In this document: in pieces, positions 3,005-32,039 of the stretch
Numbering within the stretch: the stretch's first letter is position 1
Layout: each line of letters opens with the position of its first letter
Source of the DNA: Eledone cirrhosa
Lineage: Eukaryota
Direction: 5' to 3'
NCBI GenBank assembly: GCA_964016885.1
Contig: OZ024756.1
Location: 124,001-188,000, forward strand
DNA: 64,000 nucleotides
Made by a program: the position numbers and the translations under genes
Notes under the pieces: model-generated
Database searches by the model: none
What the model saw: only the letters and a program-made list of their open reading frames with translations
What the model was told of the DNA's origin: nothing

Positions 3005-5655
3005 GTGTTAGACTAGCTTAGTGGTCAGTGTGTTGGTGTTATACTAGCTTAGTGGTCAGTGTGTTGGTGTTATACTAGCTTAGTGGTCAGTGTGTTGGTG
3101 TTAGACTAGCTTAGTGGTCAGTGTGTTGGTGTTAGACTGTGGCTTAGTGGTCAGTGTGTTGGTGTTAGACTGTGGCTTAGTGGTTAGTGTGTTGGTGTTA
3201 GACTGTGGCTTAGTGGTTAGTGTGTTGGTGTTAGACTGGCTTAGTGGTTAGTGTGTTGGTCTTAGTCTGGACTGTGGCTTAGTGGTCAGTGTGTTGGTGT
3301 TAGACTGTGGCTTAGTGGTCAGTGTGTTGGTGTTAGACTGTGGCTTAGTGGTCAGTGTGTTGGTGTCAGACTGTGGCTTAGTGGTCAGTGTGTTGGTGTT
3401 AGACTGTGGCTTAGTGGTTAGTGTGTTGGTGTTAGACTGTGGCTTAGTGGTTAGTGTGTTGGTGTTAGACTGTGGCTTAGTGGTTAGTGTGTTGGTGTTA
3501 GACTAGCTTAGTGGTCAGTGTGTTGGTGTTAGACTGTAGCTTAGTGGTTAGTGTTGGTGTCAGACTGTGGCTTAGTGGTCAGTGTGTTGGTGTTAGACTG
3601 TGGCTTAGTGGTTAGTGTGTTGGTGTTAGACTGTGGCTTAGTGGTTAGTGTGTTGGTGTTAGACGAGCTTAGTGGTCAGTGTGTTGGTGTTAGACTGTGG
3701 CTTAGTGGTCAGTGTGTTGGTGTTAGACTGTGGCTTAGTGGTCAGTGTGTTGGTGTTAGACTGTGGCTTAGTGGTCAGTGTGTTGGTGTTAGACTGTGGC
3801 TTAGTGGTTAGTGTGTTGGTGTTAGACTGTGGCTTAGTGGTTAGTGTGTTGGTGTCAGACTGTGGCTTAGTGGTTAGTGTGTTGGTGTTAGACTGTGGCT
3901 TAGTGGTCAGTGTGTTGGTGTCAGACTGTGGCTTAGTGGTTAGTGTGTTGGTGTTAGACTGTAGCTTAGTGGTTAGTGTGTTGGTCTTAGTCTGGACTGT
4001 GGCTTAGTGGTTAGTGTGTTGGTGTTAGACTGTGGCTTAGTGGTTAGTGTGTTGGTCTTAGTCTGGACTGTGGCTTAGTGGTTAGTGTGTTGGTGTTAGA
4101 CTGTAGCTTAGTGGTTAGTGTGTTGGTCTTAGTCTGGACTGTGGCTTAGTGGTTAGTGTGTTGGTGTTAGACTGTGGCTTAGTGGTTAGTGTGTTGGTCT
4201 TAGTCTGGACTGTGGCTTAGTGGTTAGTGTGTTGGTGTTAGACTGTGGCTTAGTGGTTAGTGTGTTGGTCTTAGTCTGGACTGTGGCTTAGTGGTTAGTG
4301 TGTTGGTGTTAGACTGTAGCTTAGTGGTTAGTGTGTTGGTCTTAGTCTGGACTGTGGCTTAGTGGTTAGTGTGTTGGTGTTAGACTGTAGCTTAGTGGTT
4401 AGTGTGTTGGTCTTAGTCTGGACTGTGGCTTAGTGGTTAGTGTGTTGGTGTTAGACTGTGGCTTAGTGGTTAGTGTGTTGGTCTTAGTCTGGACTGTGGC
4501 TTAGTGGTTAGTGTGTTGGTGTTAGACTGTGGCTTAGTGGTTAGTGTGTTGGTCTTAGTCTGGACTGTGGCTTAGTGGTTAGTGTGTTGGTGTTAGACTG
4601 TGGCTTAGTGGTTAGTGTGTTGGTGTTAGACTGTGGCTTAGTGGTTAGTGTGTTGGTGTCAGACTGTGGCTTAGTGGTTAGTGTGTTGGTGTTAGACTGG
4701 CTTAGTGGTCAGTGTGTTGGTGTTAGACTGTGGCTTAGTGGTTAGTGTGTTGGTCTTAGTCTGGACTGTAGCTTAGTGGTTAGTGTGTTGGTGTTAGACT
4801 GTGGCTTAGTGGTTAGTGTGTTGGTGTTAGACTGTAGCTTAGTGGTTAGTGTGTTGGTCTTAGTCTGGACTGTGGCTTAGTGGTTAGTGTGTTGGTCTTA
4901 GTCTGGACTGTGGCTTAGTGGTTAGTGTGTTGGTCTTAGTCTGGACTGTGGCTTAGTGGTTAGTGTGTTGTGGTGTCAGACTGTGGCTTAGTGGTTAGTG
5001 TGTTGGTGTTAGTCTGGACTGTGGCTTAGTGGTTAGTGTGTTGGTGTTAGACTGTAGCTTAGTGGTTAGTGTGTTGGTCTTAGTCTGGACTGTAGCTTAG
5101 TGGTTAGTGTGTTGGTCTTAGTCTGGTCTGAGGCTTAGTGGTTAGTGTGTTGTGGTGTCAGACTGTGGCTTAGTGGTTAGTGTGTTGGTCTTAGTCTGGA
5201 CTGTGGCTTAGTGGTTAGTGTGTTGGTGTTAGACTGTAGCTTAGTGGTTAGTGTGTTGGTCTTAGTCTGGACTGTGGCTTAGTGGTTAGTGTTAGACTGT
5301 GGCTTAGTGGTGAGTGTGTTGGTCTTAGATTGTAGCTTAGTGGTTAGTGCGTTGGTGTTAGACTGTGGCTTAGTGGTCAGTGTGTTGGTGTTAGACTGTG
5401 GCTTAGAGGTCAGTGTGTTGGTCTTAGACTATGGCTTAGTGGTTAGTGTGTTGGTCTTAGACAGTAGCTTAGTGGTTAGTGTGTTGGTCTTAGACTGTGG
5501 CTTAGTGATTAGTGTGTTGGTCTTAGTCTGGACTGTGGCTTAGTGTGTTGGTCTTAGACTGTGCCTTAGTGGTTAGTGTGTTGGTGTTAGACTGTGGCTT
5601 AGTGGTTAGTGTGTTGGTCTTAGATTGTAGCTTAGTGGTTAGTGTGTTGGTCTTA
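3005..5655. repeat. 33-bp minisatellite (gtggcttagtggttagtgtgttggtgttagact) with 38-bp variant; SINE-head/A-box-like unit
   Basis: About 75-80 tandem units; 33+38 bp alternation at ~3985-4600. Confidence 0.95.
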
Positions 5656-5661
5656 TAAATA

Positions 5662-5832
5662 CAATATATATTCTAGTCATGTGACTAACTCCCTAACTAA
5701 ATGTACCATATTCTAGTCATGTGACCAACCCCTTAACTATGTGTACCATATTTTAGTCACATGACCAACCCTCTAACTATATGTACAATATTCTAGTCAC
5801 ATGACCAACCCCCTAACCATATGTACAATATT
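5662..5832. repeat. 40-bp tandem repeat, ~4 copies (atattctagtcatgtgaccaaccccttaactatgtgtacc)
   Basis: Direct tandem repetition. Confidence 0.8.
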
Positions 5833-7088
5833 TTATTCAGGAGATTAATGATGTAGATATAAAATAAATCTGCTATTTCTAAATATTTACTGTATTTTCA
5901 ATGCAGTATTACTATTGCAAATGTCGTGTTTTACAAGTAGGATGTTATTTATGGTTAGAAACTCACCATGTACATATTTAAATATTCATGATATGGCTTA
6001 CATGGTCTTTCATAAAACAAGGAATACAAACACAGTCATTATTGTGTGTAGAGGGGGGGCATGGAATAGAAAAGACATGGGAAAGGAAGACCAATATGAT
6101 GATTTATGTTGAAAATTATATACATATGTTAACTTATATCAAGGTCAACCCTGATAAAATCAAAGGCATTCCAGCTACGACCATCACATCATACATTTCT
6201 TTGTTTGTGCAGACACACTATAGGTGCAAATATGAGTGTGTGATTAAAATAGTTTGCTATTGTTCCAGTTTTTTCAAGTATTTCAGATACCTACTTGGAT
6301 TTTCTAAGCCGCCATTTCAATAAATGTTTAAGGTACCTACCTAGATTATCTGAAACACAATTTTAGCCATTACTTCAATAGTTTATACAGAAGTTTTTTT
6401 ACATGTCAGCTTTTGAAATAAATAGTTTCTTCTAATTCTGACAGAATCTTTTGCCAGAGATTGCTCAGATCAATAGTTAGAACACATGGACAGAATTCAA
6501 GGGACACTTGGTTTGATTTTTCGTAGAAACAGTTGGCTACCTTTTTCCATCCACAGGGATATTTTACCTGATTTTTTAAGCTATTATCTAAAGCCATCAA
6601 CTATTGTTACAGTTTTTTTTCTGCGTTTCAGATTCCTACATTTTCTAATAAAAGAATTAATATATAACCCAGCGCTTTGATTCATTATAGAGAATGTTCT
6701 TTACATCCTAGCTGTTTATTTGGCTTCTAATTCAGATGTCAGAGGTCACTGAGCTCGATGGCTAGAGCTCTGGGTCGGAATTCTTTGTTCAGAGATAGAG
6801 ATAGAGAGAGAGAGATAGAAATGGGAAGAGGGGGGAGGGAAAGAAAGAGCGAGAGAGAAAGAGTTTTAAATCTCTCCTTCAAAAGTCTGGTCTTTCTTCA
6901 ACATGTAATTCTATCTAACTTCTTCCTTGCTGTCCTCTCACCTTTCTTCATTGGAAATCTCAGGAACTCTCATCACTGATTGCTACTGAAATCTTCATAT
7001 ATTTAAACCTGCACGCATTATCTCCCTTTAATTTCAGAGGTTTTTCTCTTTACTCCTCATTTTAATACCTAAATACCACTTGACAATA

Positions 7089-7336
7089 CAGCAGCAAATA
7101 TATACATCAGCAAATATATACTACAGCAAATATATACTACAGCAAATATATACTACAGCAATATATTCTACAGCAAATAAATACAGCAAATATATACTAC
7201 ATCAATATATTCTATACTACATTAAATATATAAAGCACCAAATATATAGTAAATATATACTACAGCAATATATACTATAGTATACAGTAAATATATATAA
7301 CAGCAAACATATACTAGAGTAATTATATACTACAGC
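7089..7336. repeat. Degenerate ~16-bp repeat (cagcaaatatatacta)
   Basis: Direct tandem repetition. Confidence 0.75.
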
Positions 7337-7337
7337 T

Positions 7338-8481
7338 TTAACCCTTTAGTGTTCAAACCGGCCAAAACTAGCCAGAATTCTCTACCTCTTTCTGTTGAAA
7401 CTGGCTGTAACTGGTCACTCAAACTGATGTTAAGGTATTGTTTTCAAAACAAATACTTTCAAAATCTCAGATTCGATATTATATGAGATAATTATGTGAG
7501 GTAAAGCCTTTACCATGAAAATATAATAGTATATATAGAGTAATATAAATGTTATGTGGGATATTATGTGAGGTAAAGCCTTTATCATGAAAATATAATA
7601 GTAAATATAGAGTAATGTAAATGTTATGTGAGATACTATGTGAGGTAAAGCCTTTACTGTGAAAATACAATAATATATATATAGAGTAATGTAAATGTTA
7701 TGTGAGATATTATATGAGGTAAGGCCTTTACCATGAAAATATAGTCGTATATATAGAGTAATGTGAATGTTATGTGAGATATTATGTGAAGTAAAGCCTT
7801 TACTGTGAAAATATAATAGTATATATAGAGTAATGTAAATGTTATGCGAGATATTATGTGAGGTAAAGCCTTTACCATGAAAATATAATAGTATATACAG
7901 AGTAATGTAAATGTTGTGAGATATTATGTGAGGAAAAGCCTTTACCATGAAAATATAGTAGTATATATAGAGTAATGTAAATGTGAGATATTATGTGAGG
8001 TAAAGCCTTTACCATGAAAATATAGTAGTATATATAGAGTAATGTAAATGTTATGCGAGATATTATGTGAGGTAAAGCCTTTACCATGAAAATATAATAG
8101 TATATATAGAGTAATGTAAATATTGTGAGATATTATATGAGGTAAAGCCTTTACCATGAAAATATAGTCGTATGTATAGAGTAATGTGAATGTTATGAGA
8201 GATATTATGTGAAGTAAAGCCTTTACCATGAAAATATAGTAGTATATATAGAGTAATGTAAATGTGAGATTATGTGAGGTAAAGCCTTTACCATGAAAAT
8301 ATAGTAGTATATATAGAGTAATGTAAATGTTATGCGAGATATTATGTGAGGTAAAGCTTTTACCATGAAAATATAATAGTATATATAGAGTAATGTAAAT
8401 GTTATGTGAGATATTATGTGAGGTAAAGCCTTTACCATGAAAATATAATAGTATATATAAAATAATGTGAATGCTAAAGGG
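7338..8481. mobile_element. TTAA-CCCTTTAG...CTAAAGGG MITE-like (piggyBac-type termini) element inflated by an internal 72-bp array
   Basis: ttaa+ccctttagtgttca at 7338 versus tgaatgctaaaggg ending 8481 (12/14 inverted match); right TTAA not intact. Confidence 0.55.
7475..8472. repeat. 72-bp minisatellite, ~14 copies, each with palindrome ggtaaag-c-ctttacc
   Basis: gtaaagcc at 7501 and 7573 gives period 72. Confidence 0.92.
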
Positions 8482-8599
8482 ATATACATACAGCAGTAAA
8501 TATATTCTTGAGCTGTCAACTTCAGAACTATCTTTTCTGTCTTTTATTTCTTTATCTAGTTCTTCAGTAACTAAACAGTTTACTATATCAAAGTTTATA

Positions 8600-9190
8600 A
8601 CTGGAATAATTTTATTGACCTTGTAAGGATGAAAGGCAAAGTTTAACCTCAGCGGGATTTGAACACAGAACGTAAAGAGTCGTCACTCTCTGCCGCGAAG
8701 CAGGCTGTTTGACGCTCTACCGATTACTGCCAAACTATCACAACAATAATAATAATAATTGTTTCTTATATAGGCACAAGGCCAGCAGTTTTGCGGGAGG
8801 GGAAAGTCGATTAAATCGACCCGTGCGTGACTAGTACTTTATTTTATCGACTCCGTAAGGATGAAAGGCAAAATTAACCTCGGCGGGATTTGAACTCAGA
8901 ATGGCAAGGGCCGTAACTCTATGCGTCAAAGCATGGCGTCCGACCCTCTACAGATACTGCCAATCCACCGCCTTAGTTTACAATAATAATAATCGTTTCT
9001 ACTTTAGGCACAAGGCCAGCAATTACCCAGTGCATTACTGGTACTTTATTTTATCGACCCCGTAAGGATGAAAGGATAATAATTGTTTCTACATTTGGCA
9101 CAAGGCCATTTGAAGGGAGACGAAAGTCAAATCAACCCCAGTGTATTACTGGTGCTTTATTTTATCGACCTCGTAAGGGTGAAAGGATAA
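8600..9190 (-). mobile_element. Cluster of four SINE family A copies (one near full-length at 8755-8975, three partial) separated by (AAT)n tails
   Basis: Repeated ggtactttattttatcgacc-cgtaaggatgaaaggc; B-box gagttcaaatcc on minus strand. Confidence 0.85.
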
Positions 9191-15773: not shown

Positions 15774-16145
15774 AAAAAGAGAATCAGTGTTTCGACGAAT
15801 GGAATTTATTGGACATATTACAATCGTTTCTCTGGAGACCAGCTCGAGGCATGATCGATCTGATGAGCGAGTCTTGATTCTACGAAGCAGAGTTTCCTAA
15901 TTAGGAAAGTCTACTTCGTAGAATCAAGACATATCTGAGGACCTTGCGATTATCAGAGTCAGGTTCGATCATCACATCGATCGTGTCTCGAGCTGGTCGC
16001 CAGAGAAACGATTGTAATATGTCCGATAAATTCCATTCATCACAACACTGATTCTCTTTTTTTATGTGATATCATACTCTGCTCTATGAGAGCATCGAGT
16101 GCTCATACGGCCTACCGCATACGGATGCTTTAAGCATCCAAAACC
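15774..16145 (+). mobile_element. Penelope-like element pseudo-LTR with inverted 5'-truncated copy (fold-back palindrome)
   Basis: Arms ~15774-15866 and ~15969-16061 are reverse complements; inner palindrome 15871-15930; contains a hammerhead motif; ends at (TA)n. Confidence 0.7.
15928..16023 (+). ncRNA. Type I hammerhead ribozyme motif with long stem II
   Basis: gacatat-CTGAGGA-[63-nt imperfect hairpin]-GAAA-cgattg-TA-atatgtc; stem I gacatat/atatgtc; predicted cleavage after 16016; C.A mismatch at stem II base. Confidence 0.7.
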
Positions 16146-16160
16146 AATTATATATATATA

Positions 16161-16410
16161 TGGTATGGACATGTGATGTGCATGGATGATGATCAGTGGG
16201 TGAAGAAGTTGCCAAATAATCCCAGTGGAAGGAAGCTGCAATAGAGGAAGACCAAGGAAGACCTGGATGGAAATGGTGAGAGCTGACCAGATAGCTAAAG
16301 CTCATGGAGGAGATGACAAAGGAGTGCGACAAGTGGAGAGAGTGACACTGTAGTGAGAAAGAGCCATCCAACATATTGCAAACGTGGAACAGGGAATCTA
16401 ATAATGATGA
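16161..16410 (+). mobile_element. Degenerate RTE LINE 3' end
   Basis: tggtatggacatgtgatg...ggaagaccaaggaagacctgg homologous to 20927-21298. Confidence 0.8.
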
Positions 16411-16571
16411 TATATATATACATACATACACACAGGCAGTAGTGGCAAGATAGTAAACTGTGGTGCTACCAGCTTTGGATAAAGGGGGAAAAAAAGAAGC
16501 AGTTGACAGCATTAACAGCAGACCAGACTGACATAACAGTGTAAACAGATTTCATGGTAAGGAAATGGCAA

Positions 16572-17900
16572 GAAACAGAAACTGGAAGAAAACCTTAGAA
16601 ACTATAAATTGATATAAAACAGAAACTGGAAGAAAACCTTAGAAACTATAAATTGATATAAAACAGAAACTGGAAGAAAACCTTTGAAACTATAAATTGA
16701 TATAAAACAGAAACTGGAAGAAAACCTTTGAAACTATAAATTGATATAAAACAGAAACTGGAAGAAAACCTTTGAAACTATAAATTGATATAAAACAGAA
16801 ACTGGAAGAAAACCTTTGAAACTATAAATTGATATAAAACAGAAACTGGAAGAAAACCTTAGAAACTATAAATTGATATAAAACAGAAACTGGAAGAAAA
16901 CCTTAAGGAACTATAAATTGATATAAAACAGAAACTGGAAGAAAACCTTAAGGAACTATAAACTGATATAAAACAGAAACTGGAAGAAAACCTTAAGGAA
17001 CTATAAACTGATATAAAACAGAAACTGGAAGAAAACCTTAAGGAACTATAAATTGATATAAAACAGAAACTGGAAGAAAACCTTAAGGAACTATAAACTG
17101 ATATAAAACAGAAACTGGAAGAAAACCTTTGAAACTATAAATTGATATAAAACAGAAACTGGAAGAAAACCTTTGAAACTATAAATTGATATAAAACAGA
17201 AACTGGAAGAAAACCTTTGAAACTATAAATTGATATAAAACAGAAACTGGAAGAAAACCTTTGAAACTATAAATTGATATAAAACAGAAACTGGAAGAAA
17301 ACCTTTGAAACTATAAATTGATATAAAACAGAAACTGGAAGAAAACCTTAGAAACTATAAATTGATATAAAACAGAAACTGGAAGAAAACCTTTGAAACT
17401 ATAAATTGATATAAAACAGAAACTGGAAGAAAACCTTTGAAACTATAAATTGATATAAAACAGAAACTGGAAGAAAACCCTTGAAACTATAAATTGATAT
17501 AAAACAGAAACTGGAAGAAAACCTTAGAAACTATAAACTGATATAAAACAGAAACTGGAAGAAAACCTTTGAAACTATAAATTGATATAAAACAGACTGG
17601 AAGAAAACCTTTGAAACTATAAACTGATATAAAACAGAAACTGGAAGAAAACCTTTGAAACTATAAATTGATATAAAACAGAAACTGGAAGAAAACCTTT
17701 GAAACTATAAATTGATATAAAACAGACTGGAAGAAAACCTTTGAAACTATAAACTGATATAAAACAAACTGGAAGAAAACCTTAGAAACTATAAACTGAT
17801 ATAAAACAGAAACTGGAAGAAAACCTTTGAAACTATAAATTGATATAAAACAGAAACTGGAAGAAAACCTTAGAAACTATAAACTGATATAAAACAGAAA
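16572..17900. repeat. 44-bp A-rich minisatellite (aaacagaaactggaagaaaacctttgaaactataaattgatata), ~30 copies, with a longer ttaagg-variant block at ~16900-17100
   Basis: actgg at 16581 and 16625 gives period 44. Confidence 0.95.
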
Positions 17901-18030
17901 CAAAAGAAAAAAAGGGAGGCATTGCCTTATAGCTTGATATAATTGATGTTCCATTTTTGATGGTTGATTATATATCTTTCAGGAGATAGATAGATAGCTG
18001 GTCATCTGGTCCCTCCAGCCACATGTGAAC

Positions 18031-18122
18031 ACATATCTGAGGAGCTTCCGATTCCAGAGTCAGGATCGATCATTAATTGATCGTTCCTCGAGCCGATCGA
18101 CAGTGAAACATATGTAATATGT
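18031..18122 (+). ncRNA. Type I hammerhead ribozyme motif, homolog of 15928-16023
   Basis: acatat-CTGAGGA-gct...agt-GAAA-catatg-TA-atatgt; palindromic stem III ACAUAUGU; predicted cleavage after 18116. Confidence 0.78.
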
Positions 18123-18268
18123 AATTAAATATGTATATGATGTAACACTGATTCTTTGTTCCCTTATATATATATTATTATTGATACTCTGCTCCCCACG
18201 AGCATCGAGTGCTCATCTTGGCATACCGCCTACGGATGCAATTAATTTGCACCTCTAATACCTATATA

Positions 18269-18270
<2 letters not shown>
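18031..18270 (+). mobile_element. Penelope-like pseudo-LTR fragment, diverged homolog of 15928-16145
   Basis: Shared aacactgattct and atactctgctc...gagcatcgagtgctcat...cggatgc tail; ends at (TA)n(GA)n. Confidence 0.7.
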
Positions 18271-18322
<52 letters not shown>

Positions 18323-18396
18323 TGTGTATATATGTATAATAACCAATGATAATACTTGGTAGACAAACAAATAGATTGTTGTTTAAAATCTCTCTC

Positions 18397-18440
<44 letters not shown>

Positions 18441-18854
18441 GTGTGTGTATGTATTATATATATACACAATCTTTTTATCTTCCTATCTAATATTTCTCAT
18501 TCCTCTCTCCCTACCTACCCTCTACCTCCCAATCTCCCTACCCACTACCCCTACCTCTTTATCTACCCCCCCCCCCCTTTCCCTTATCTCCATGTAAGGA
18601 GGTTTATTAATAAACTTCCTCACCTTTTCCTCTTCCTGTCATTTCCAGATGACTTTCTAACTTTGGAGTAAACATCAAAATATCAAACTAACTTCTTTCT
18701 TATAAGACACACCATTCTTCATACACACACACCACACACACCACAGTCATACACACAAAGTCACCCCCCCCCCCACACACACACACCCAGTTAGTACATT
18801 TATTATAACAAAAGGTGTTTTTCCCTTATCTGATAGTATGAATAAAGCAGATTG

Positions 18855-19015
18855 ACAGCAACAACAATATCAACAGCAATAACAGCAACAGCAACAATAA
18901 CAGCAATAATAACAACAGCAGCAGCAATAACAACAGCCACAGCAACAGTAACAATGCATCCAGCAACAATAACAACAGTGGTAACAATACATCCAACAAC
19001 AACAATAACAATATG
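18855..19015. repeat. (AAC/AGC/AAT)n triplet low-complexity tract
   Basis: Triplet repeats. Confidence 0.75.
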
Positions 19016-19239
19016 CAAACAAAATAAATATTTATTTTAAATTGAAGAAAGTGTAAGTAGAGATAGAAATCAATGGAGAAAGAGAGTGGGAGGGGGAGAT
19101 AGACAGAAAGAGGGGGAAGAAAGATAGATAGAGGGAGAGGAGGGGGAACTCAAAAAGGAAGGGGAGTTTAGTTAGAGAGACAGAGAGAGTGTAGTGGGGA
19201 GGGAGGAGTTGAGTTAGAGATGGAAGGGTAATTCTATCA

Positions 19240-19540
19240 ATCCAAGACTTGGTTATATTACTAAAATCCCTTTGAATTTTAGATTATTTTCAAAATTATT
19301 TGAAAATAATAGAGAGTATCTTTGATTAAAAATATGGTAATGAAAGGGTTAATGACATAGACAGTGTCTTTCATTAGAAATATGGTAATGAAAGGGTTAA
19401 TGACATAGGTTGTGTCTTACATTAGAAATATAGTAATGAAAGGGTTAATGACATACACAGTGTCTTTCATTAGAAATATGGTAATGAAAGAGTTAATGAC
19501 ATAGAACTAAAAAGGGTTAACATATCTAAAAAGGGTTAAT
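19240..19540 (+). mobile_element. MITE-like element end with its terminus (aaaggg-ttaa) tandemly duplicated in 48-bp units
   Basis: gaaagggttaa at 19342, 19390, 19438, a variant at 19486, and two shorter copies. Confidence 0.65.
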
Positions 19541-20064
19541 AACATAACTAAAAAAATGGGAGCTAGATGTTTTGTGATCCTTAATGGTTCATACAATCAG
19601 TCGGTGCTTTTGTCATGAAATGTCTGAGAGACATTCTGTTGGATAGAGTGTAAGTATTTTACAACAAACTTTCTCATGTTCTGCTAACTATTATAACTAG
19701 GTTAACAGAGGTATATATATATATTAATGTCCACCATTAGAAACGTGATTGGCTGACAATACCTGAGCCAGATGTCTGTGATTGCCATTCATGGGTGGCC
19801 GCTGTTGCGTGCTGTTGATTGACTGGACTGGAGACAGTATAACCAAACCTGGGTCAAACAGGTACAAGTGTGTATGTATGTATGTATGGACCCATAACTC
19901 CTGATGGAGTTGTAGGGGTGCCGTAGTGACATACACTGTGTCTTGGGCATTTTAAAACCTGGTGGAGCCCATCTCTCCAGTTTTGAACACAGCTGATTTC
20001 TTCCAGAGAAGGAGAGAGAGTGAGAGAGAGGAAGTGAGAAAAGAGATATAGAGAAAGAAATAGC

Positions 20065-20222
20065 CCCAGTACTAGACTGGTGCTTTTTTTTTTATTGACC
20101 TCGAATGGATGAAAGGCAAAGTTGACCTCAGCAGGATTTGAACTGAGAGAGTAGCGAGCCAGAACAAATATTACAAAGCATTCTATCTGATGTTCTAACG
20201 ACTCTGTCAATCTGCCACCTTT
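20065..20222 (-). mobile_element. SINE family A, degenerate
   Basis: ggatgaaaggcaaagttgacctcagcaggatttgaactg core. Confidence 0.75.
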
Positions 20223-20926
20223 ACAGGTACAAGTAAATTAACAGAGAAACAGTCTAAAATGTCCTATCTAGAGATGCAATAACTGCAGTGTGAATTTGAT
20301 CTTACGAACCACAAGTTACTGTAGTTCAATACCAATATTGATTTTGCCAGGATGCAATGATACACAAGATTAACAAAGCCTGATTTATGTTTCAGCTTTA
20401 ATAAAAAATATTGTGTGATAAGTGCTGAGAATTATTGGAAGCTAATGTTCTTTGATTACATGACTGGAATATGATGGACAGAATCAAAACTGGTTATTCT
20501 ATAGTGTTTAATAACTGGGAGAATATTTCTGTAGGTCACACTTTACTGAAGAAGAGAGGGATTCTAGGGTAGTGTCATGGGTTACTGAGAGAGAGAGAGA
20601 GAGATACTAGGGTAGTGTCATTGTTTACTGAGAGATACTAGGGTAGTGTCATAGTTTACTGGGTCCTAACAAAATGAACTCTCCCAACCACCCCGCCATC
20701 CAAGCACTATATCCTGTGTCCTTACAAAATGAACTCCCCCAACCAGGGTGGAGGTGACTTCTACTGCAGCTATTTCACAGGTAACAGCCCTCATTATTGC
20801 TAACCACTGAACTGTGAAGAAAAGGTGGAACCTATTTAAATCTAACAAGAGAGTTTACATATCTTCAGCTACCAAGACAATGGTTGTGGTATGGTTAGAA
20901 CTCAGAACTCATTATTATAATCATAG

Positions 20927-21298
20927 AAATGAGGCAAGCATGCTCCGTTGGATGTGCAGTGTCAATGTGCGTGAACGACCCAGCATGAATGTGTTGAGAG
21001 AGAAACTGTGTCTGAGAGGGATAGAATGTAGTGTGCGAGAGAGGAGACTGCGGTGGTATGGACATGTGATGCGCATGGAGGATGACCGATGGGTGAAGAA
21101 GTGCCAGTTGAAGGAAGACATGGTAGAGGTAGACCACGAAAAACATGGGCGGAGGTGGTGAGAACAGACCGCAGATCGCTGAAGCTCACGGTGGAGATGA
21201 CGAAGGACCGTGACAAGTGGAAAGATGCTGTGCTGAATAGGACTCGTCCCACCCTTGCAAGCAGGGAAGTGCCGACGTAAAATGATGATGATGATGAT
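20927..21298 (+). mobile_element. RTE-clade LINE 3' end
   Basis: RNEASMLRWMC...RRLRWYGHVMRMEDDRWVKK, then a frameshifted GRPRKTW...DRDKWK; (ATG)n tail; close homolog of 10252-10617. Confidence 0.9.
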
Positions 21299-21752
21299 CA
21301 CAACACTACTACGAGCAGTAGCACCGCCATGACATACCACTACCACCATCACCACCACCACTACTGCCATGACATACCACTACCAAGACATACGTTTTGT
21401 TAGCCCTGAAGACCAACTTGTTTAATCTTCCTTTTTCTTTCCTATTTATTTTCATCAACACAGGTTGAACAAGTCAGTCCTCAAGACCAATGAAACGTAC
21501 CTGGTATGCTGCTGTTGTATTAACAGGCCTTAATATTTATATTCAAACTCACCCTCCAGTTGTTCTATACCTTCCATATTTTTACCTACCTATTATATAT
21601 AAAATAGAAAAAAAACAAGGAAGTTTTGTTTACATATGAAAAGTATTTATTGCGTATTGACCTGTATATATATATATATAGCTCGTCTAACCCATGCTAG
21701 TGAGGAAAAATGGACGTTAAACGGTGATGATGATGTATGCATGTATCAATAT

Positions 21753-22062
21753 ATCATCATCATCATTTTACGTCCGCTTTTCCCTGCTAGCAAGGGTGGG
21801 ACGGGAACTGATTCTGGCTTGGTTTCTACAGCTGGATGCCCTTCCTAACACCAACCTCATTTACAGTGAGTCCTGGGTGCTTTTTGCAGTGGAATGATAG
21901 GGACCCCAGTCTTATCATCTCATTTCTACAGCTGAGTAAACTGGAGCAATGTGAAATAAAGTGTCTCGCTCAAGGAAACAACACATCACCCGGTCTGAGA
22001 ATTGAACTCACAACCTTTCGATTGCAAGGCCAATTGCTCTAACCTCTAAGCCATGTGCCTCC
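21753..22062 (-). mobile_element. tRNA-derived SINE family B with RTE-like 3' tail
   Basis: Minus strand: tggcttagaggttagag A-box-like, gagttcaattct B-box-like, ccttgagcgagacacttt, tail ccacccttgctagcagggaaaagcggacgtaaaatgatgatg. Confidence 0.8.
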
Positions 22063-22065
22063 ATG

Positions 22066-22104
<39 letters not shown>

Positions 22105-22384
22105 GTATCATTATCATCATTTTACATCCGCTTTTCCCTGCTTGGTAAACTTAGATATTTTTTATTTATTATCTACCTTATGATGATCTATCTTATATGT
22201 ATTGTTCTGAGCTCTAGTACAGATTTTCACACCTGCTATTATTGATCAACTTCCATGACGGACAACATGGAAATAACAATGAAGGCTTCGATGTAACTAG
22301 CACTGTATTGATCTAAGTATTGAACTAAATCCCTATCATACATACATACACACACATATATATATATATATTTCATTCAGTTTT

Positions 22385-22663
22385 CATTCATTTTACGTCT
22401 GCTTTTCCCTGCTTGCAAGGGTGGGACTGGAACTGATTCTGGCTTGATTTCTACAGCTGGATGCCCTTTAGAAGAATTGGACTGAGGAAACAATGTTTCC
22501 ATGGGTCTTTCCAATTGCTAATACTATCTATCGGTCGCAACTCCAGGTAGAAGGAGCAACGTGAAATAAAGTGTCTTGCTCAAGGACATAACGCATCGCC
22601 TGGTCCAGGAATAGAACTCACAACCTCACAATTGCGAATCTAATTCTCTAACCACTCAGCCAT
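22385..22663 (-). mobile_element. SINE family B pieces (tail 22385-22470, head ~22550-22663)
   Basis: Homology to 21753-22062. Confidence 0.7.
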
Positions 22664-22819
22664 ATACATATATTATTTAAACTCCCAGCAATAAACTGCA
22701 TTCAAATTGTAAGTTGAACTTACATTCACATACAAATACACACACATATGCCCAGATGATGGAGTGTTGTCACCGCCAGCATTAACCAGCTCAGCTGAAA
22801 GCTAGTTGAAAACATCAAT

Positions 22820-22910
22820 AGTAGAAGATACTTTCACAAAATGCTGCCCAGTGAGATTGAACCTGATAAACAGGTGATAGTGAAGCAGGTTTCTTAACCA
22901 CACAGCCACC
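22820..22910 (-). mobile_element. Degenerate SINE head (third family)
   Basis: cagtgagattgaacct...cttaaccacacagccac is a tRNA-like head on minus strand; related piece at 23775-23918. Confidence 0.5.
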
Positions 22911-23049
22911 AGCCTACAACCATATACAGCTGTAAACTTCACACCTATTGTTCCTCATTTAATTTATGTAAATTATATTCACACTAGTTAAATATTTTCC
23001 GTGGGAAATTACACCAAAAATAGTCAGGTCTTGTAAAGAAATACTCTAG

Positions 23050-23700
23050 CAGTGACATGAGAAGAGGCTGAGGACTGTGGAAGAAGACATGTACCTCTAA
23101 CAGTGACATGACAAGGACTGGTCAAGGACTGTGGGGGAAGACATGTACCTCTAACAGTGACATGTCAAGGACTGTGGGGGAAGACATGTACCTCTAACAG
23201 TGACATGACAAGGACTGGTCAAGGACTGTGGGGGAAGACATGTACCTCTAACAGTGACATGACAAGGACTGGTCAACGACTGTGGAAGAAGACATGTACC
23301 TCTAACAGTGACATGACAAGGACTGGTCAACGACTGTGGAAGAAGACATGTACCTCTAACAGTGACATGACAAGGACTGGTCAACGACTGTGGGGGGAAA
23401 ACATGTACCTCTAACAATGACATGACAAGGACTGGTCAACGACTGTGGGGGAAGACATGTACCTCCAACAGTGACATGACAAGGACTGGTCAACGACTGT
23501 GGGGGAAGACATGTACCTCTAACAGTGACATGACAAGGACTGGTCAACGACTGTGGGGGAAGACATGTACCTCTAACAGTGACATGACAAGGACTGTGGG
23601 GGAAGACATGTACTTCTAACAGTGACATGACAAGGACTGTGGGGGAAGACATGTACCTCTAACAGTGACTGGTCAAGGACTGTAAGGAAAGGCATGTACC
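23050..23700. repeat. 54-bp minisatellite (gtgacatgacaaggactggtcaacgactgtgggggaagacatgtacctctaaca), ~12-13 copies including 42-bp variants
   Basis: 18-aa periodic ORFs; direct repetition. Confidence 0.92.
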
Positions 23701-23922
23701 CGTAACATAAATTCTCACCATGATTCAGTGTGATGCAGTGTATAAGCCTGACCCTTTGAATTACAAGTACAGTTCATCCGACAGGCTTCCAAACAGTTTC
23801 TGTCTGCCCAATTTCACTAACAAGGCATGGGATGACCTGGGTTGCATGGTAAATGACACTCAGTGGGATCAAACTCAGGACATAATGATTGGGAAGTGGA
23901 GTTGTTAACCATCAGGCCAGAG

Positions 23923-24247
23923 AAGCAACAGTAACATTACCAGCAATAGAAGCAAGAAAAACAACAACAGTAACACCAATGATGGCAATAGAACCAACAT
24001 CAACACCACCACCACCACCACCACCAGCAACAGTATCAACACCAACACCACCACCACCACCACCACCAGCATCAACAGTAGCAACATCAACAACAACACC
24101 ACCAACAGCAACAGTAACAGCATCAACACCACCACCACCACCAGCAACAGTATCAACAACAACAACACCACCACCACCAACAGCAACAGTATCAACAACA
24201 ACAACACAACCACCACCACCACCATCACCATCACCACCACCACAACA
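23923..24247. repeat. (ACC/AAC)n triplet low-complexity tract
   Basis: Triplet repeats giving a Pro/Thr ORF. Confidence 0.75.
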
Positions 24248-24734
24248 AATTAAAGAAGGGGTTTTTTTTTGTCCGTTGTTTTGTCCAGAGAAATGATTTG
24301 AATAGAAAAAGGCTTTCCTTCTCTCAACTGGAGTTGTTTTACTGTGTGTGGGCTTTAAGGAGTTCCATCTGCTCCCTTAGAAAAGGGGGGATTAAAAGTC
24401 TTCAAGATGGAGAAGAAAATGGTAATGGGGTGTGTAGGAGAGGAAGGCTAGACCTGGGGAGGCGGAGGGGGCTAAGAAAAGGACATTGCAGCACAATGAG
24501 GGGGGAGGGGGGGGGGGCTTATGCCTAACACCACCACCACCACCATCTTCATTTAGATGACTGGCTCTCCTGTAAAGAGGGGAGAGGAGAGAATGAGAGG
24601 AGAGTAAAGCAACCTTCCCCCCCAAAGGCATGGAAACATTAAGGGATTGTCTGAAGAAAATGACGATGGGGGGGGGGGGGGGATGAGACAAGTTTTTGCT
24701 TCTCTTGTATAACAACAACAATGATGATGATAAT

Positions 24735-25162
24735 GAATATATATATGTATACATGTGTGTATATATGTGTATATATACGTGTATATATATGTGTGTGTAT
24801 ATATATATGTATATATATGTGTGTATATATATATATATGTATATATATGTGTGTGTATATATATGTATGTGTGTATATATATGTATGTATATATGTGTAT
24901 ATATATATGTATATATATGTGTGTGTATATATATGTATGTGTGTGTATATATATATGTATATATATGTGTGTATATATATATATAAGGTCTTTCTCTTTT
25001 AACGGCAGTCAACAAATTATACATGCAGCTGTCAGGAAGAAAAAAATTGAAATTAAGAATGAACAGCTTGGCAACTAGTTTGTCTCCCACCCGCCCTCTA
25101 TCTATCTATCTCTATCTGTATAGCTATGGGATATTGGATATTAAATTCCTTGCAATAATACA

Positions 25163-25212
<50 letters not shown>

Positions 25213-25430
25213 GAGTAATATATAAATATATATACATACATATAAATACGAGTAATATATAAATATATATACATACATAAAAATACATATACACACACAT
25301 AAATACATATACACACACACAAATACATATACACATACACACGCATATATATATACACACATACACATATCTATAAATACATATAGATATATGTATAAAT
25401 ATATATATATATACATAAATATATATATCT
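24735..25430. repeat. (TA)/(TG)/(CA) microsatellite tracts
   Basis: Dinucleotide repeats at 24735-24985 and 25165-25430. Confidence 0.8.
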
Positions 25431-25910
25431 ATAAATGAATGTAATCTGAGTTTTTCGAATATTAATAATAACATTCGATTTGTTTGCAATTGTGCAAACA
25501 AGCCGAATTTTTATGCCATGTCAGTAGAATGAGCCCCTCGTCCTTGCTCTTGTGTTGGCATGCTGACATATACACAAACACATATATATAAATATATAAT
25601 ATAAGATCAAGAGATGGTTAAAAGAGTTCCAAGTATTTTATTATGCGCATTTCAAAAACAAATATCATGGGATGATATCTGCGTTCTCATCAGATAACAT
25701 AGGGAGACATGATAAGAAGCTTAAAAAACACTTGTGAATAGTGAAGTTTTAAATCAACATATGAAAAATAAATTAAGATGGATGTATGAGATTGGGAAAA
25801 AGTGAGGGGGGTTTGGAAAAGGTAAGGAAGAGGAAGGAATAAGAGTAAAGGATGGTGGGGGAGGAGTATAAGAAGGAAGGATATTGTGCTACAATAAAAC
25901 TCACCTCCTA
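25430..25910 (-). mobile_element. Penelope-like element 3' end/pseudo-LTR embedded between TA-rich microsatellites
   Basis: On minus strand: pyrimidine-rich tract, hammerhead, hairpin-rich tail; flanked on both sides by (TA)n-type repeats. Confidence 0.6.
25634..25701 (-). ncRNA. Minimal type I hammerhead ribozyme motif
   Basis: Minus strand: tatgttat-CTGATGA-gaacgcagatatcat-ccc-atgatatttgttttt-GAAA-tgcgca-TA-ataaaata; stem II 14/15 pairs, palindromic stem III AUGCGCAU, stem I 7/8 pairs. Confidence 0.85.
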
Positions 25911-26039
25911 CATATATAAATATATATATACATATATATATAAATACATATACACATATATATAAATAAATATATAATTTGCTGTTTTTGGTCACCTTAG
26001 AAGGGTTATAAGACAGAACGTTAGGAGCATGGCTGGGTA

Positions 26040-26232
26040 ATAATTGTTTCGACTTTTGGCACAAGGCCAGCAATTATCTCAGTGCATTACTGGTACTTTA
26101 TTTTATCAACCCCGTAAGGATGAAAGGCAAAGTTAACCTCGGCGGGATTTGAACTCAGACTGTAAAGGGAGGCAACTATGCTAGAAAGCATGGCGTCCGA
26201 CCCTCTACCGATACTGCCAATTCACCGCCCTA
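26040..26232 (-). mobile_element. SINE family A, near full length
   Basis: Close match to 8755-8975 and reverse complement of 15345-15533. Confidence 0.85.
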
Positions 26233-26486
26233 ATAATGAGGGATCGTTAAGTTATAGAGGCACCACCACTACCACAACTACCACCACCAACACCACCACC
26301 ACCACTACCTCCACCAACACCACTACTACCACCACCACCACCACTAGCAGCAGCATGACTAGAGAGAGGGAGTGAGTATGAGAGAGAAAGAGACAAAGAG
26401 AGAGAGAGAGGGGGAGTAGATACCAGAATAGGAAGCAAGTGTAGAAATAATTATTAAATATAAATTCATTGAATTTTGACAGATAC

Positions 26487-27715
26487 CAATCAATATATTC
26501 TAGACAGATCAATATATTCTAGAGAGATCAATATATTCTAGACATCAATATATTCTAGACAAATCAATATATTCTAGAGAGATCAATATATTCTCGACAT
26601 CAATATATTCTAGAGAGATCAATATATTCTAGACAAATCAATATATTCTAGAGAGATCAATATATTCTAGAGAGATCAATATATTCTAGAGAGATCAATA
26701 TATTCTAGACAGATCAATATATTCTAGACATATCAATATATTCTAGAGAGATCAATATATTCTAGAGAGATCAATATATTCTAGACATCAATATATTCTA
26801 GAGAGATCAATATATTCTAGACAGATCAATATATTCTAGAGAGATCAATATATTCTAGACAGATCAATATATTCTAGAGGTCAATATATTCTAAACAGAT
26901 CAATATATTCTAGAGAGATCAATATATTCTAGACAGATCAATATATTCTAGAGAGATCAATACATTCTAGACAGATCAATATATTCTAAACAGATCAATA
27001 TATTCTAGACAGATCACTATATTCTAGACAGATCAATATATTCTAGAGACATCAATATATTCTAGACATCAATATATTCTAGACAGATCAATATATTCTA
27101 GACATCAATATATTCTAGACAGATCAATATATTCTAGACAGATCAATATATTTTAGACAAATCAAAATATTCTAGAGAGATCAATATATTCTAGACAGAT
27201 CAATATATTCTAGAGAGATCAATATATTCTAGAGAGATCAATATATTCTAGAGAGATCAATATATTCTAGATAGATCAATATATTCTAGACAGATCAATA
27301 TATTCTAGAGACATCAATATAGTCTAGACAGATCAATATATTCTAGACAGATCAATATATTTTAGACAAATCAAAATATTCTAGAGAGATCAATATATTT
27401 TAGAGAGATCAATATATTCTAGACAGATCAATATACTCTAGAGACATCAATATATTCTAGACAGATCAATATATTCTAGAGACATCAATATATTCTAGAC
27501 AGATCAATATATACTAGACAGATCAATATATACTAGACAGATCAATATATTCTAGAGAGATCAATATATTTTAGACAAATCAAAATATTCTAGAGAGATC
27601 AATATATTCTAGAGAGATCAATATATTCTAGACAGATCAATATATTCTAGAGAGATCAATATATTCTAGAGAGATCAATATATTCTAGAGAGATCAATAT
27701 ATTCTAGACAGATCA
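26487..27715. repeat. 19-bp minisatellite (gatcaatatattctagaga/ca) with 17-bp variants, ~65 copies
   Basis: Direct tandem repetition. Confidence 0.95.
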
Positions 27716-27774
27716 AGCAAACAGTAACTATTGGAAAAAACAAAACCTAAGATCTGTTACATTCTATTTAACAA

Positions 27775-28738
27775 ACTACTACTACCACAACCACCACCAT
27801 TACTACTACCACCACCACCACCACTACTATTACTACTATCACCACAATTACAATCACTACCACCACTACTATTACCATCACCACCACTACTATCACCATT
27901 ACCATCACCACCACCACCATTACCATCACCACTATTACCATTACCACCACCACTATTACCATCACCACCACCACTATTACCATCACCACCACTACTATTA
28001 CCATCACCACCACTACTATCACCATCACCACTATTACCATCACCACCACCACTATTACCATCACCACCACTACTATCACCATTACCATGACCACCACCAC
28101 TATTACCATCACCACCACCACTATTACCATCACCACCACCACTATTACCATCACCACCACCACTATTACCATTACCACCACCAATATAACCATCACCACC
28201 ACCAATATTACCATCACCACCACCACCATTACCATCACCACCACCACTATTACCATCACCACCACCACCACCACTATTACCATCACCACCACCACTATTA
28301 CCATCACCACCACCACTATTACCATCACCATCACCACCACCACTATTACCATCACCACCACCACTATTACCATCACCACCACCACTATTACCATCACCAC
28401 CACCACTATTACCATCACCACCACCACCATTACCATCACCACCACCACTATTACCATCACCACCACCACTATTACCATCACCACCACCACTATTACCACC
28501 ACTACTATCACCATCACCACTATTACCATCACCACCACCACTATTACCATCACCACCACTACTATCACCATTACCATCACCACCACCACCATTACCATCA
28601 CCACCACCACTATTACCATCACCACCACCACTATTACCATCACCACCACTACTATCACCATCACCACCACCACTATTACCATCACCACCACCACTATCAC
28701 CACCACAACTATTACAATCACTACCATCACTATCATCA
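27775..28738. repeat. ~21-bp triplet-derived repeat (accaccaccactattaccatc)
   Basis: Direct repetition; poly-Thr/Ile and poly-Val ORFs. Confidence 0.9.
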
Positions 28739-28828
28739 GCATGTGTTTAACTAGTCATATTGTGAGATAAGCCAGATCAGATGACTGTCTTGCTCACACA
28801 GAAATGATTCTGGTTTAGTTTCTACTTT

Positions 28829-30470
28829 TTTACAGTGGGTACTGGGTGCTTTGTGTTGCGATACTAACACGACCACTTTACAGTGTATACTGGGTGCTTT
28901 GTGTTGTGACACCAACACGACCACTTTACAGTGCGTACTGGGTGCTTTGTGTTGCGATACTAACACGACCACTTTACAGTGCGTACTGGGTGCTTTTTGT
29001 TGTGACACTAACACGACCACTTTACAGTGTATACTGGGTGCTTTTTGTTGTGACACTAACACGACCACTTTACAGTGGGTACTGGGTGCTTTTTGTTGTG
29101 ACACTAACACGACCACTTTACAGTGCGTACTGGGTGCTTTTTGTTGCGATACTAACACGACCACTTTACAGTGTATACTGGGTGCTTTTTGTTGTCACAC
29201 TAACACGACCACTTTACAGTGGGTACTGGGTGCTTTTTGTTGTGACACCAAAACGACCACTTTACAGTGGGTACTGGGTGCTTTTTGTTGTAACACCAAC
29301 ACGACCACTTTACAGTGTATACTGGGTGCTTTTTGTTGTGACACTAACACGACCACTTTACAGTGTATACTGGGTGCTTTGTGTTGTGACACCAACACGA
29401 CCACTTTACAGTGCGTACTGGGTGCTTTGTGTTGCGATACTAACACGACCACTTTACAGTGCGTACTGGGTGCTTTTTGTTGTGACACTAACACGACCAC
29501 TTTACAGTGTATACTGGGTGCTTTTTGTTGTGACACTAACACGACCACTTTACAGTGGGTACTGGGTGCTTTTTGTTGTGACACTAACACGACCACTTTA
29601 CAGTGCGTACTGGGTGCTTTTTGTTGCGATACTAACACGACCACTTTACAGTGTATACTGGGTGCTTTTTGTTGTCACACTAACACGACCACTTTACAGT
29701 GGGTACTGGGTGCTTTTTGTTGTGACACCAAAACGACCACTTTACAGTGGGTACTGGGTGCTTTTTGTTGTAACACCAACACGACCACTTTACAGTGTAT
29801 ACTGGGTGCTTTTTGTTGTGACACTAACACGACCACTTTACAGTGGGTACTGGGTGCTTTTTGTTGTGACACCAAAACGACCACTTTACAGTGGGTACTG
29901 GGTGCTTTTTGTTGTGACACCAACACGACCGCTTTACAGTGGGTACAGGGTGCTTTTTGTTGTGACACTAACACGACCACTTTACAGTGTGTACTGGGTG
30001 CTTTTTGTTGTGACACTAACACAACCACTTTACAGTGTGTACTGGGTGCTTTTTGTTGTGACACTAACACGACCACTTTACAGTGTGTACTGGGTGCTTT
30101 TTGTTATGACACCAACACGACCACTTTACAGTGGGTACTGGGTGCTTTTTGTTGCGACACCAACACGACCACTTTACAGTGGGTACTGGGTGCTTTTTGT
30201 TGTGACACTAACACGACCACTTTACAGTGGGTACTGGGTGCTTTTTGTTGTGACACTAACACGACCACTTTACAGTGCGTACTGGGTGCTTTGTGTTGCG
30301 ATACTAACACGACCACTTTACAGTGCGTACTGGGTGCTTTTTGTTATGACACCAACACGACCGCTTTACAGTGGGTACTGGGTGCTTTTTGTTGTGACAC
30401 TAACACGACCACTTTACAGTGTGTATTGGGTGCTTTTTGTTGTAACTCATACACGTCTTTACAGTGTGGA
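28829..30470. repeat. 48-bp minisatellite (tttacagtgggtactgggtgctttttgttgtgacactaacacgaccac), ~34 copies, with a 480-bp (10-mer) duplication
   Basis: 28861-29340 near-identical to 29341-29820; unit homologous to SINE B segment 32205-32253. Confidence 0.95.
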
Positions 30471-30582
30471 CTGAGCGCTTATTGTCTTGTCACCTATATG
30501 ACCACTTTACACACACACACACACGTGTGTGTGTGTGTGTGTGTGTTTATGTGTGTGTGATTATATAATAACACAATATAAT

Positions 30583-30656
30583 TATTCCATTACCCAAGGT
30601 TTCACAAAGTTAGACAATTCTAACAGAGACGTCTGTTTCGTTCATCAGATGAAATA
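30583..30656 (-). ncRNA. Type I hammerhead ribozyme motif
   Basis: Minus strand: tatttcat-CTGATGA-acgaa...tttgt-GAAA-ccttgg-GTA-atggaata; stem I 8 bp (one GU), stem III ACC/GGU with UUG loop; predicted cleavage between 30591 and 30590. Confidence 0.75.
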
Positions 30657-30849
30657 CCTTTGTTATGGATATAAGATATGAAATGAAAATCTATTAGAAA
30701 TGAAAGTGAGGCTGAATTAAAATAACGGAAAAAATACATTTCCACACAGAATCAGATGTACATACATGCACACATACATAACATCGAAGATACAACTATA
30801 GATACATACACACAAACACACACACACACACATATATATATATACACAC

Positions 30850-31750
30850 ACCCTCCTCACTCCAACTTTCACACCTACCCATCCTCGCCCCCTTACCATT
30901 CCACCGACTGCTGCTATGCCCTTCTGACCACCTGCCAGCACCAACAGACCACAGCACTCCCACTGCTGACCACTTCCTGTTGCGCGTGCACCCCACATCT
31001 CTCCTCTTCCGACCACCGCTTCATGGATTACCCACACGCAGAAATTGACTTATAACCAATCTTCCTAACAACCTTACCAACTTTTCAACCATCCTCTTAC
31101 GTCATCACCTATATAACTCACCCACACACACACCCCAAAAAATTTTTTTTCTCCACACGCCACCCCCACACACACCTGCTTCCCACCACATATTTACACC
31201 CTCAGCCTCCTGATTCCTCTCCCCCCCCCCTATCCACACACGCACAGACACTCCGACCCCCCCCCCCACACACCTCTTCCTGAACATGCAACCCTGTTCT
31301 TCCCCCAACCCTTACTTTCATACACCTACACACACACACCACCTTCAGCCCTCCCCGCTCCGACACCCCGTCTCCCTCTCCCCACTCCACCCACCACCAC
31401 TCCTACTCACCCCACACCCTTCCACCACCTGTTTACCCCCCTTTTAATTTCAGTTTATTTTGATCATGCCTTTATTTTTAAATTTTCTCATTCCTTGTAT
31501 TTTGATCATGCTTTACTTTTATTTTTTATCTTTATTTGTTAATTTTTCATTCGCAACGTTTCCTTTCGCTATATGTCTCTCCACCACTCCCTTACACACC
31601 TTTTGAACTCTGTTCCCACACACTTCTCACCTGAGGAAGGGCTTATGCCCGAAACGTCGTCCCCCACCTACCCCCCACTCTCCTGAGCGTGAAATTAATA
31701 AACATTTATTGTACTGCCTCTCTTTTGTCCCTGTTCAAATTTTGCCATTA
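30850..31750 (+). mobile_element. Highly decayed Penelope-like element 3' region (possible GIY-YIG C-terminus remnant, pyrimidine-rich UTR, hammerhead, AATAAA, (TA)n)
   Basis: Remnant peptide HRLLLCPSDHL...HSTPTADHF..VH loosely resembles PLE endonuclease tails; hammerhead core at 31631; aataaa at ~31697; TA repeats on both sides. Confidence 0.5.
31631..31661 (+). ncRNA. Minimal hammerhead core, probably inactive (stem I lost)
   Basis: CTGAGGA-a-gggc-ttat-gccc-GAAA-cgtcg-TC; flanks ctcac/cccc cannot pair. Confidence 0.65.
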
Positions 31751-32039
31751 TATATATATATATATATATACATATAAATATACACAAACACACATATCTC
31801 TCTCTCTCTCTATATATATATTTCAATGAAAATACAAGGCTAATTTCCAATAATTACATATGTATTTCTATGGTCTTCTTATGTCATCCTATGATACACA
31901 ACAATTAGCGACATTATTAGATGTAATGATCACAGATGATTTAAAAGATTAATCTCTACTGGGTAATAACAAAACATAAACAAAGAATTGATATGGAGGT
32001 GGCCCAGCTAGTGATGAGATCATTATAACAGACATATGT

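Follow-up and report, generated by a model that had tools for sequence, protein, structure and literature searches.

The presence of five hammerhead ribozyme motifs within 16 kb of the genome of Eledone cirrhosa raises the question of what kind of element they belong to. The DNA analysed here is a stretch of 64,000 bp (assembly GCA_964016885.1, contig OZ024756.1, positions 124,001 to 188,000 of the forward strand), which we call the window. Our analysis indicates that the five motifs are very probably hammerhead sequences, each located at the 3′ end of a separate repeat family (A1, A2, B, C or D). Four of these families continue into coding sequence of Penelope-like elements (PLEs), three of the Hydra clade and one Neptune-type, and the hammerheads likely cleave only when paired via their palindromic helix III.

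Hammerhead motifs in the window

The initial annotation of this DNA had reported five hammerhead motifs, and all five cores are indeed present at those positions (Table 1). A type I hammerhead descriptor that requires a helix I of at least 4 bp matches the window four times, compared with a mean of 0.17 matches in 100 block-wise dinucleotide shuffles of the window (maximum 2), and none of the 100 shuffles reaches the four matches of the real sequence. The fifth motif, that of family D, is matched only if a helix I of 2 bp is allowed. The CUGANGA, GAAA and NUH core elements and three helices, with helix I open, are found in all five, helix I of D having only its 2 bp. This short helix had been taken for a lost stem I; however, the 2-bp helix I is found in all 12 D copies shown, along with the extra A, the G-C pair at 10.1-11.1 and the loopless palindrome, and thus the window copy has lost nothing and 2 bp is the family state.

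The same annotation had grouped the motifs into about four families, with those at 15928 and 18031 being homologous. The homology stands, as the two are about 75% alike, but each has its own set of copies that are 90–97% alike. They are therefore sister families (A2 and A1, respectively) and not one, and the families number five.

Table 1. Hammerheads, repeat families and minisatellites in the window, and long-armed hammerheads in other stretches of the genome
Feature	Position	Strand	Description
A2 hammerhead (type I)	15928..16023	+	helix I 7 bp, 15928-15934/16017-16023; core 15935; helix II 63 nt; near-palindromic helix III CGATTG; C-A at 10.1-11.1; predicted cut after 16016
A1 hammerhead (type I)	18031..18122	+	helix I 6 bp; helix II 61 nt; palindromic helix III CATATG; G-U at 10.1-11.1; predicted cut after 18116
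B hammerhead (type I)	25636..25699	-	helix I 4 bp here, 6 bp in most copies; helix II 36 nt in most copies, 33 nt here; palindromic helix III TGCGCA; G-U at 10.1-11.1; predicted cut after 25642
C hammerhead (type I)	30583..30656	-	helix I 8 bp; helix II 38 nt; helix III CCTTGGG, 3 bp with 3-nt loop; A-U at 10.1-11.1; predicted cut after 30591
D minimal hammerhead	31629..31660	+	helix I 2 bp; helix II 13 nt, 4-bp G-C; extra A before helix II; loopless palindromic helix III; G-C at 10.1-11.1; predicted cut after 31658
Inverted partial A2 copy	15774..15901	-	fold-back at 5′ end of the A2 insertion; catalytic core deleted; 15774-15870 matches A2 copy at 94%
Family A2	15902..16150	+	5′-truncated 3′ end of putative Hydra-clade PLE; (TA)n end; endonuclease C-terminus contiguous upstream in L266
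Family A1	18021..18261	+	5′-truncated 3′ end of putative Hydra-clade PLE; (TA)n end; endonuclease upstream, same strand, in six long copies
Family B	25592..25882	-	5′-truncated 3′ end of young, putative Hydra-clade PLE; copies 96–98% alike; same-strand endonuclease upstream; CxCX5C
Family C	30560..30846	-	older repeat, PLE-like anatomy; copies 84–92%; microsatellite end, optional tail, inversions; assigned by anatomy only
Family D	30844..31752	+	3′ untranslated region and pseudo-long terminal repeat of young, putatively Neptune-type PLE; (TA)n end; copies 97–99% alike
Minisatellite, 44 bp x30	16573-17901		without hammerhead
Minisatellite, 54 bp x11	23073-23639		without hammerhead
Minisatellite, 19 bp x65	26489-27716		without hammerhead
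Minisatellite, 48 bp x35	28829-30511		without hammerhead
Long-armed hammerheads, sampled stretches	L214:4399-4534, L230:2920-3061, L236:4454-4597, L228:8132-8263, L204:6338-6468, L214:907-1023

Links to PLE coding sequence

Four families (A1, A2, B and D) trace upstream, on the same strand, to PLE coding sequence. A search for linked reverse transcriptase (RT) and GIY-YIG endonuclease reading frames, suggested at the outset as a check, thus succeeded for all but C, and the earlier description of the families as non-autonomous is therefore not supported. The clade labels used here rest on protein motifs and not on a tree.

In family D, loci L121 and L122 each form a unit of two pseudo-long terminal repeats (pLTRs) on either side of an open reading frame (ORF); the pLTRs lie about 4.6 kb apart in phase and are 96–98% identical. 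The RT and GIY-YIG regions of these units are frameshifted, and the RVT_1 match (E 3e-5) falls below the cut-off. A DKG motif, a linker of the form CX4CxxC and the presence of two paired cysteines within the C-terminal GIY-YIG are Neptune-type, features that do not strictly exclude Nematis. Family B has an endonuclease on the same strand 1.0–1.5 kb upstream in eight of 30 loci and an inverted one in three, and its copies share sequence at 90–93% as far as 1.5 kb upstream. Six long A1 copies are collinear from the endonuclease as far as the hammerhead, with a 3′ untranslated region (UTR) of about 1.2 kb between the two, and one A1 copy (L195) also has pieces of RT. For A2 the endonuclease link was seen in one of 25 loci (L266). 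The 3′ UTRs in these families are 1.0–1.4 kb long.

The A1 and B proteins have a CxCX5C linker, lack cysteines (no CCHH) inside GIY-YIG and carry CxxC/CxH around E and N; A2 shows the C-terminal CxxC/CxH part of this set. DKT replaces DKG in the A1 copy L195 and in L199, and the A2 and B stretches stop short of that region. Together these features match the definition of the Hydra clade in PMC8557442. Its RWK motif was not found in the seven stretches searched, all of them decayed. In the D and A1 copies the endonuclease lies downstream of RT, which differs from the N-terminal order of Naiad elements, and the C-terminal position of the D endonuclease led us to reject the idea that D is a Naiad with a core-only motif. 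The window itself gave no tblastn match to pieces of PLE.

Several other candidate links were rejected. A PLE ORF upstream of A1 in L009 has its own hammerhead and (TA)n end, and A1 is therefore nested in its tail. In L294, C is inserted in the tail of another element, and the L078 sequence used as the upstream probe is part of a different long-armed family. L272 and L275 have endonucleases near C on the opposite strand, which are mutually dissimilar and were dropped as partners of C. An antisense endonuclease beside A1 in L156-L158 might have indicated a bidirectional element; the sense order is found in L159 and L160, and the three loci are therefore inversions. We also note, in L191 (1907-3790, oriented), a Hydra-type PLE with an open frame of 627 amino acids and long low-complexity inserts between RT and endonuclease.

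Anatomy of the insertions

The families are abundant, as the initial annotation had supposed. A first look gave 3303 candidate copies for A1 (18031), 3602 for A2 (15928), 1602 for B (25693, minus strand), 2186 for C (30648, minus strand) and 1371 for D (31631), 40 of each being scored. Anatomy was counted in 145 loci (A1 30, A2 25, B 30, C 30 and D 30). A microsatellite borders the 3′ end in 132 of these (A1 28, A2 25, B 22, C 27, D 30), and an inverted partial copy lies directly upstream in 14 of 30 A1, 14 of 25 A2, four of 30 B, four of 30 C and none of 30 D loci. Subsets of the B and C copies have a tail of 70–85 nt. 5′ truncation, inverted 5′ copies, an optional 3′ tail and pLTR direct repeats are all found; inverted copies, optional tails and a microsatellite at the 3′ end are PLE traits according to PMC8557442.

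These insertions are not arranged as retrozymes, the other origin that had been put forward. A second same-strand copy within about 1.5 kb occurs in only three of the 145 loci (A1 0/30; A2 1/25, of another family; C 1/30), which together with the coding links argues against that name, and none of the 18 tandem-repeat rows between 15000 and 33000 overlaps a hammerhead. All five window copies keep 30–145 nt beyond the predicted cut, and their templates would therefore have been uncut at that site or re-joined.

Other details of these insertions deserve mention. The inverted and sense A2 copies are joined by a near-perfect fold-back hairpin (15871-15930), which gives weak, chance microRNA matches in Rfam. 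At 30844-30846, C (minus strand) and D (plus strand) meet head to head over a short microsatellite, and the nesting of one family in the (TA)n tail of another was seen repeatedly (L009, L078 and L294). A1 (18227-18240) and A2 (16110-16135) have in common two small 3′-end hairpins that are better conserved than their surroundings and are possibly an RT recognition signal.

Structure and conservation of the hammerheads

The predicted fold of helix II in A1 (-18.7 kcal/mol), A2 (-22.8 kcal/mol), B and C is a hairpin that has interruptions and no branches. To span the A lineage, 11 rows were selected out of 59 A-like motifs and examined for covariation; these rows are related to one another, and the same sequences had served to derive the structure. 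In this set 91.5% of cells pair, compared with 27–38% in slid controls, and two-sided changes occur at 10 of 32 pairs, a count that three of 500 shuffles reach. Helices I and III and the proximal part of helix II have the strongest covariation support. Helix III is self-complementary in all 11 rows in spite of changes in its sequence, and the helix III motifs fold together in pairs (-7.8 to -12.5 kcal/mol in A1, A2, B and C) and hardly on their own.

Within families, core positions differ in 26 of 1418 cells, as against 744 of 23,721 other non-CpG cells (p = 0.004). In the contigs of runs X1 and X4, which bear on neither expression nor ends, the sole change listed in the D core falls at the free N7 position, at about 42% of depth. 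The letters of an internal loop in the middle of helix II (15954-15960/15985-15992 in A2; 18054-18060/18089-18095 in A1) are invariant in all 11 A-lineage rows, and this loop is a candidate tertiary or protein contact.

Abundance and detectability

Motif density was estimated from 40 stretches of 10 kb elsewhere in the genome, hand-picked at round coordinates, with a descriptor that allows helix II up to 130 nt. They contain 27 motifs, and each of 10 shuffles contains 0–2. Helix III is self-complementary in 24 of the 27 (0–1 in shuffles), and in 10 of the 27 helix II exceeds 50 nt, with a maximum of 109 nt. Scaled to the 3.0-Gb genome, this amounts to about 202,000 motifs (about 67 per Mb), with a Poisson range of 133,000–294,000 that is widened further by clumping and by the non-random picking of stretches. 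The same descriptor finds three motifs in the window, where 4.3 would be expected from the sampled stretches, and a stricter one, with 15 motifs in the 400 kb, finds three where 2.4 would be expected. Thus the motif density of the window is ordinary for this genome, and what had been called a dense system is not one.

Rfam, which had been recommended for confirming the motifs, lists 53 matches in the window at E up to 5, of which none is a hammerhead, and at the gathering score it detects none of the 24 motifs in 15 of the sampled stretches (150 kb). Size-limited descriptors likewise miss these motifs, and published cephalopod counts, such as the 235 Hammerhead_1 hits of the giant squid (PMC6962438), may therefore be far too low.

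The sampled stretches also contain further hammerhead families in which helix II is 79–109 nt long (Table 1), some with predicted three-way junctions and all with a palindromic helix III. The commonest sampled family (five of the 27 motifs; L220, L222, L223 and L228) has an 8-bp helix I, a helix II of 26–31 nt and (TA)3 as helix III.

A model for the motifs and its alternatives

By analogy with published PLE biology, the RT and GIY-YIG endonuclease of the element would copy its RNA into (TA)n through target-primed reverse transcription that begins immediately 3′ of the hammerhead, and early termination in the majority of cases would leave short hammerhead-bearing stubs. In the transcript of a tandem pLTR-ORF-pLTR unit two hammerheads could pair and excise a unit-length RNA, with circularisation possibly the next step, and a solo stub would stay uncut or inert. 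Any self-cleavage at the predicted sites would likely be dimer-dependent. The long helix II appears to be a tolerated, structurally maintained extension, any role of which is hypothetical. In the two longest-armed families, A1 and A2, copies are shortest and inversions most frequent, a pattern suggestive of RT stalling on the structure; the two form one lineage, and this is only a hint.

Several observations weigh against this interpretation. Only one of the six long A1 copies has an intact CUGANGA; 30 short and 16 long stretches yielded no same-strand coding link for C; none of the ORFs seen is intact, those of the D copies being frameshifted; and the Hydra and Neptune assignments, made from motifs in place of a tree, are putative. 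In the A lineage the distal 14 pairs of helix II have a single two-sided change, in a structure derived from these very sequences, and the A1, C and D consensus regions, when folded without constraints, do not adopt the hammerhead structure. The expectation that the core would be better conserved than the flanks is borne out overall, but in only two of the five families does p fall to 0.05 or below, and the copies compared are the top matches to the window copy. Finally, a standard pair at 10.1-11.1 is present in only four of the 11 A-lineage rows, the other seven lacking it. As G10.1-C11.1 is called highly conserved in PLE hammerheads (PMC4209133), A1 and A2 may therefore cut weakly or not at all.

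That decay underlies one alternative, that the long-armed A1 and A2 motifs are relics without catalytic activity, in which the hairpin survives for some other function, such as recognition by RT or another protein. The drift at 10.1-11.1 from G-C to G-U, C-A and A-A, the invariant internal-loop letters, the poor cutting of metazoan PLE hammerheads in vitro (PMC4209133) and the success of Naiads that lack canonical hammerheads (PMC8557442) would all agree with it. We nevertheless think it unlikely; the core letters, the pairing of helix I and the palindromy of helix III are all kept while the flanks diverge by about 25%, and cleavage persists in an axolotl hammerhead whose helix II has a U-U mismatch at its base (PMC7229834). 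A different alternative, to which we give a similarly low probability, is that PLE proteins act in trans to copy A1, A2 and C, which would now be mobile as short non-autonomous elements. It would account for the 3303 candidates at the A1 3′ end, compared with 66 for the stretch 20–270 nt further upstream, for the fact that A1 and A2 copies mostly begin no further than tens of bases from helix I and for the missing coding link of C, and animal retrozymes have been argued to derive from pLTRs (bioRxiv 10.64898/2026.07.22.740005). However, the 5′ ends differ from copy to copy, long copies match the window copy as well as short ones do (85–94%), and the same-strand neighbours and tandem arrays of such elements are rare and absent, respectively, in the loci and rows described above.

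That the window is a special hotspot or a functional ribozyme cluster is very improbable and already largely refuted. The 15.7-kb span that holds the motifs has three by the sampling descriptor where 1.06 would be expected, C and D stand head to head, and PLEs insert into the microsatellite tails of one another. The span was chosen post hoc, though, and even so P is 0.09; the count for the whole window is below expectation, and one of the sampled 10-kb stretches holds four motifs. The five motifs moreover come from different families and strands and have different palindromes. We thus prefer the reading of all five as hammerheads at PLE-type 3′ ends. A bolder version of it is possible but doubtful. 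In it the ~200,000 motifs that Rfam does not see would include a long-armed dimer ribozyme evolved by Hydra-clade PLEs, with a helix II of 50–110 nt that is sometimes branched. The invariant internal loops would stand in for the customary loop contact and G-C base pair or would dock the RT of the element, and the arm would stall reverse transcription and so give short, folded-back insertions. If this were true, the number of motifs here would exceed the 126,247 hammerhead motifs reported for axolotl (PMC7229834; bioRxiv 10.64898/2026.07.22.740005).

Comparison with known hammerhead systems

The core of our finding is expected biology, as hammerheads in the ends of PLEs are established (PMC4209133), and the original reading of the motifs as PLE-type, type I hammerheads with a palindromic helix III is supported. 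Relative to the papers compared below, what seems new is the scale, the decay of the 10.1-11.1 base pair, the failure of Rfam to see the motifs and a long arm shared by many animal families. We found no literature on a long helix II in cephalopod PLE hammerheads, on which subscription papers and bioRxiv supplements may bear, and the words "ribozyme" and "Hydra" are absent from a paper on Octopus vulgaris repeats (PMC13282606). The young families that have full-length copies (D and probably B) provide constructs with which the still open role of hammerheads in PLE transposition could be addressed, and a lineage in which helix II has grown to 60–110 nt and the base pair has decayed is a natural test of what a dimer hammerhead tolerates.

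The closest relatives are Hydra-clade PLEs, among them Hydra-1_Obim of Octopus bimaculoides (PMC8557442), which like the elements here have a C-terminal GIY-YIG without CCHH, a CxCX5C linker, DKT and a (TA)n target. Hydra-1_Obim also has a sense-strand type I hammerhead close to its 3′ end with a near-palindromic helix III, and so, as to whether these families were already catalogued, which the initial annotation could not say, their class is (supplement of PMC8557442). Proteins found here also resemble those of Hydra-1_Obim by eye. The helix II of Hydra-1_Obim is 22 nt long and that of the cnidarian rows about 10–16 nt; here it measures 33–63 nt, and in other families it reaches as much as 109 nt. 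A precedent for a long arm is PLE-X1_sMoe of spike moss, with a helix II region of about 53 nt, but this is an endonuclease-less element of a plant with another layout of helices I and III (PMC8557442).

The minimal PLE hammerheads of PMC4209133 resemble family D in their loopless palindromic helix III, the extra nucleotide that follows position 9 and precedes 10.1 and their G10.1-C11.1 pair, and the 2-bp helix I of D resembles that of a D. virilis variant. As here, most of their copies are solo remnants of truncated PLEs. Their helix II has only 6–8 bp and a conserved G10.1-C11.1, whereas A1, A2, B and C have longer arms on a base that is not G-C, and the stem II of these families was thus correctly singled out at the start as unusual. 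The genomes in that study have 2,000–9,000 motifs each, compared with the ~200,000 estimated here with a different descriptor. Animal non-LTR retrozymes (PMC7229834; bioRxiv 10.64898/2026.07.22.740005) are similar in having type I hammerheads with a weak palindromic helix III, AT-rich units of 250–300 bp and very high copy number. Retrozymes, however, are tandem and non-coding, and the families described here are dispersed and 5′-truncated and, in four of five cases, continue into coding sequence.

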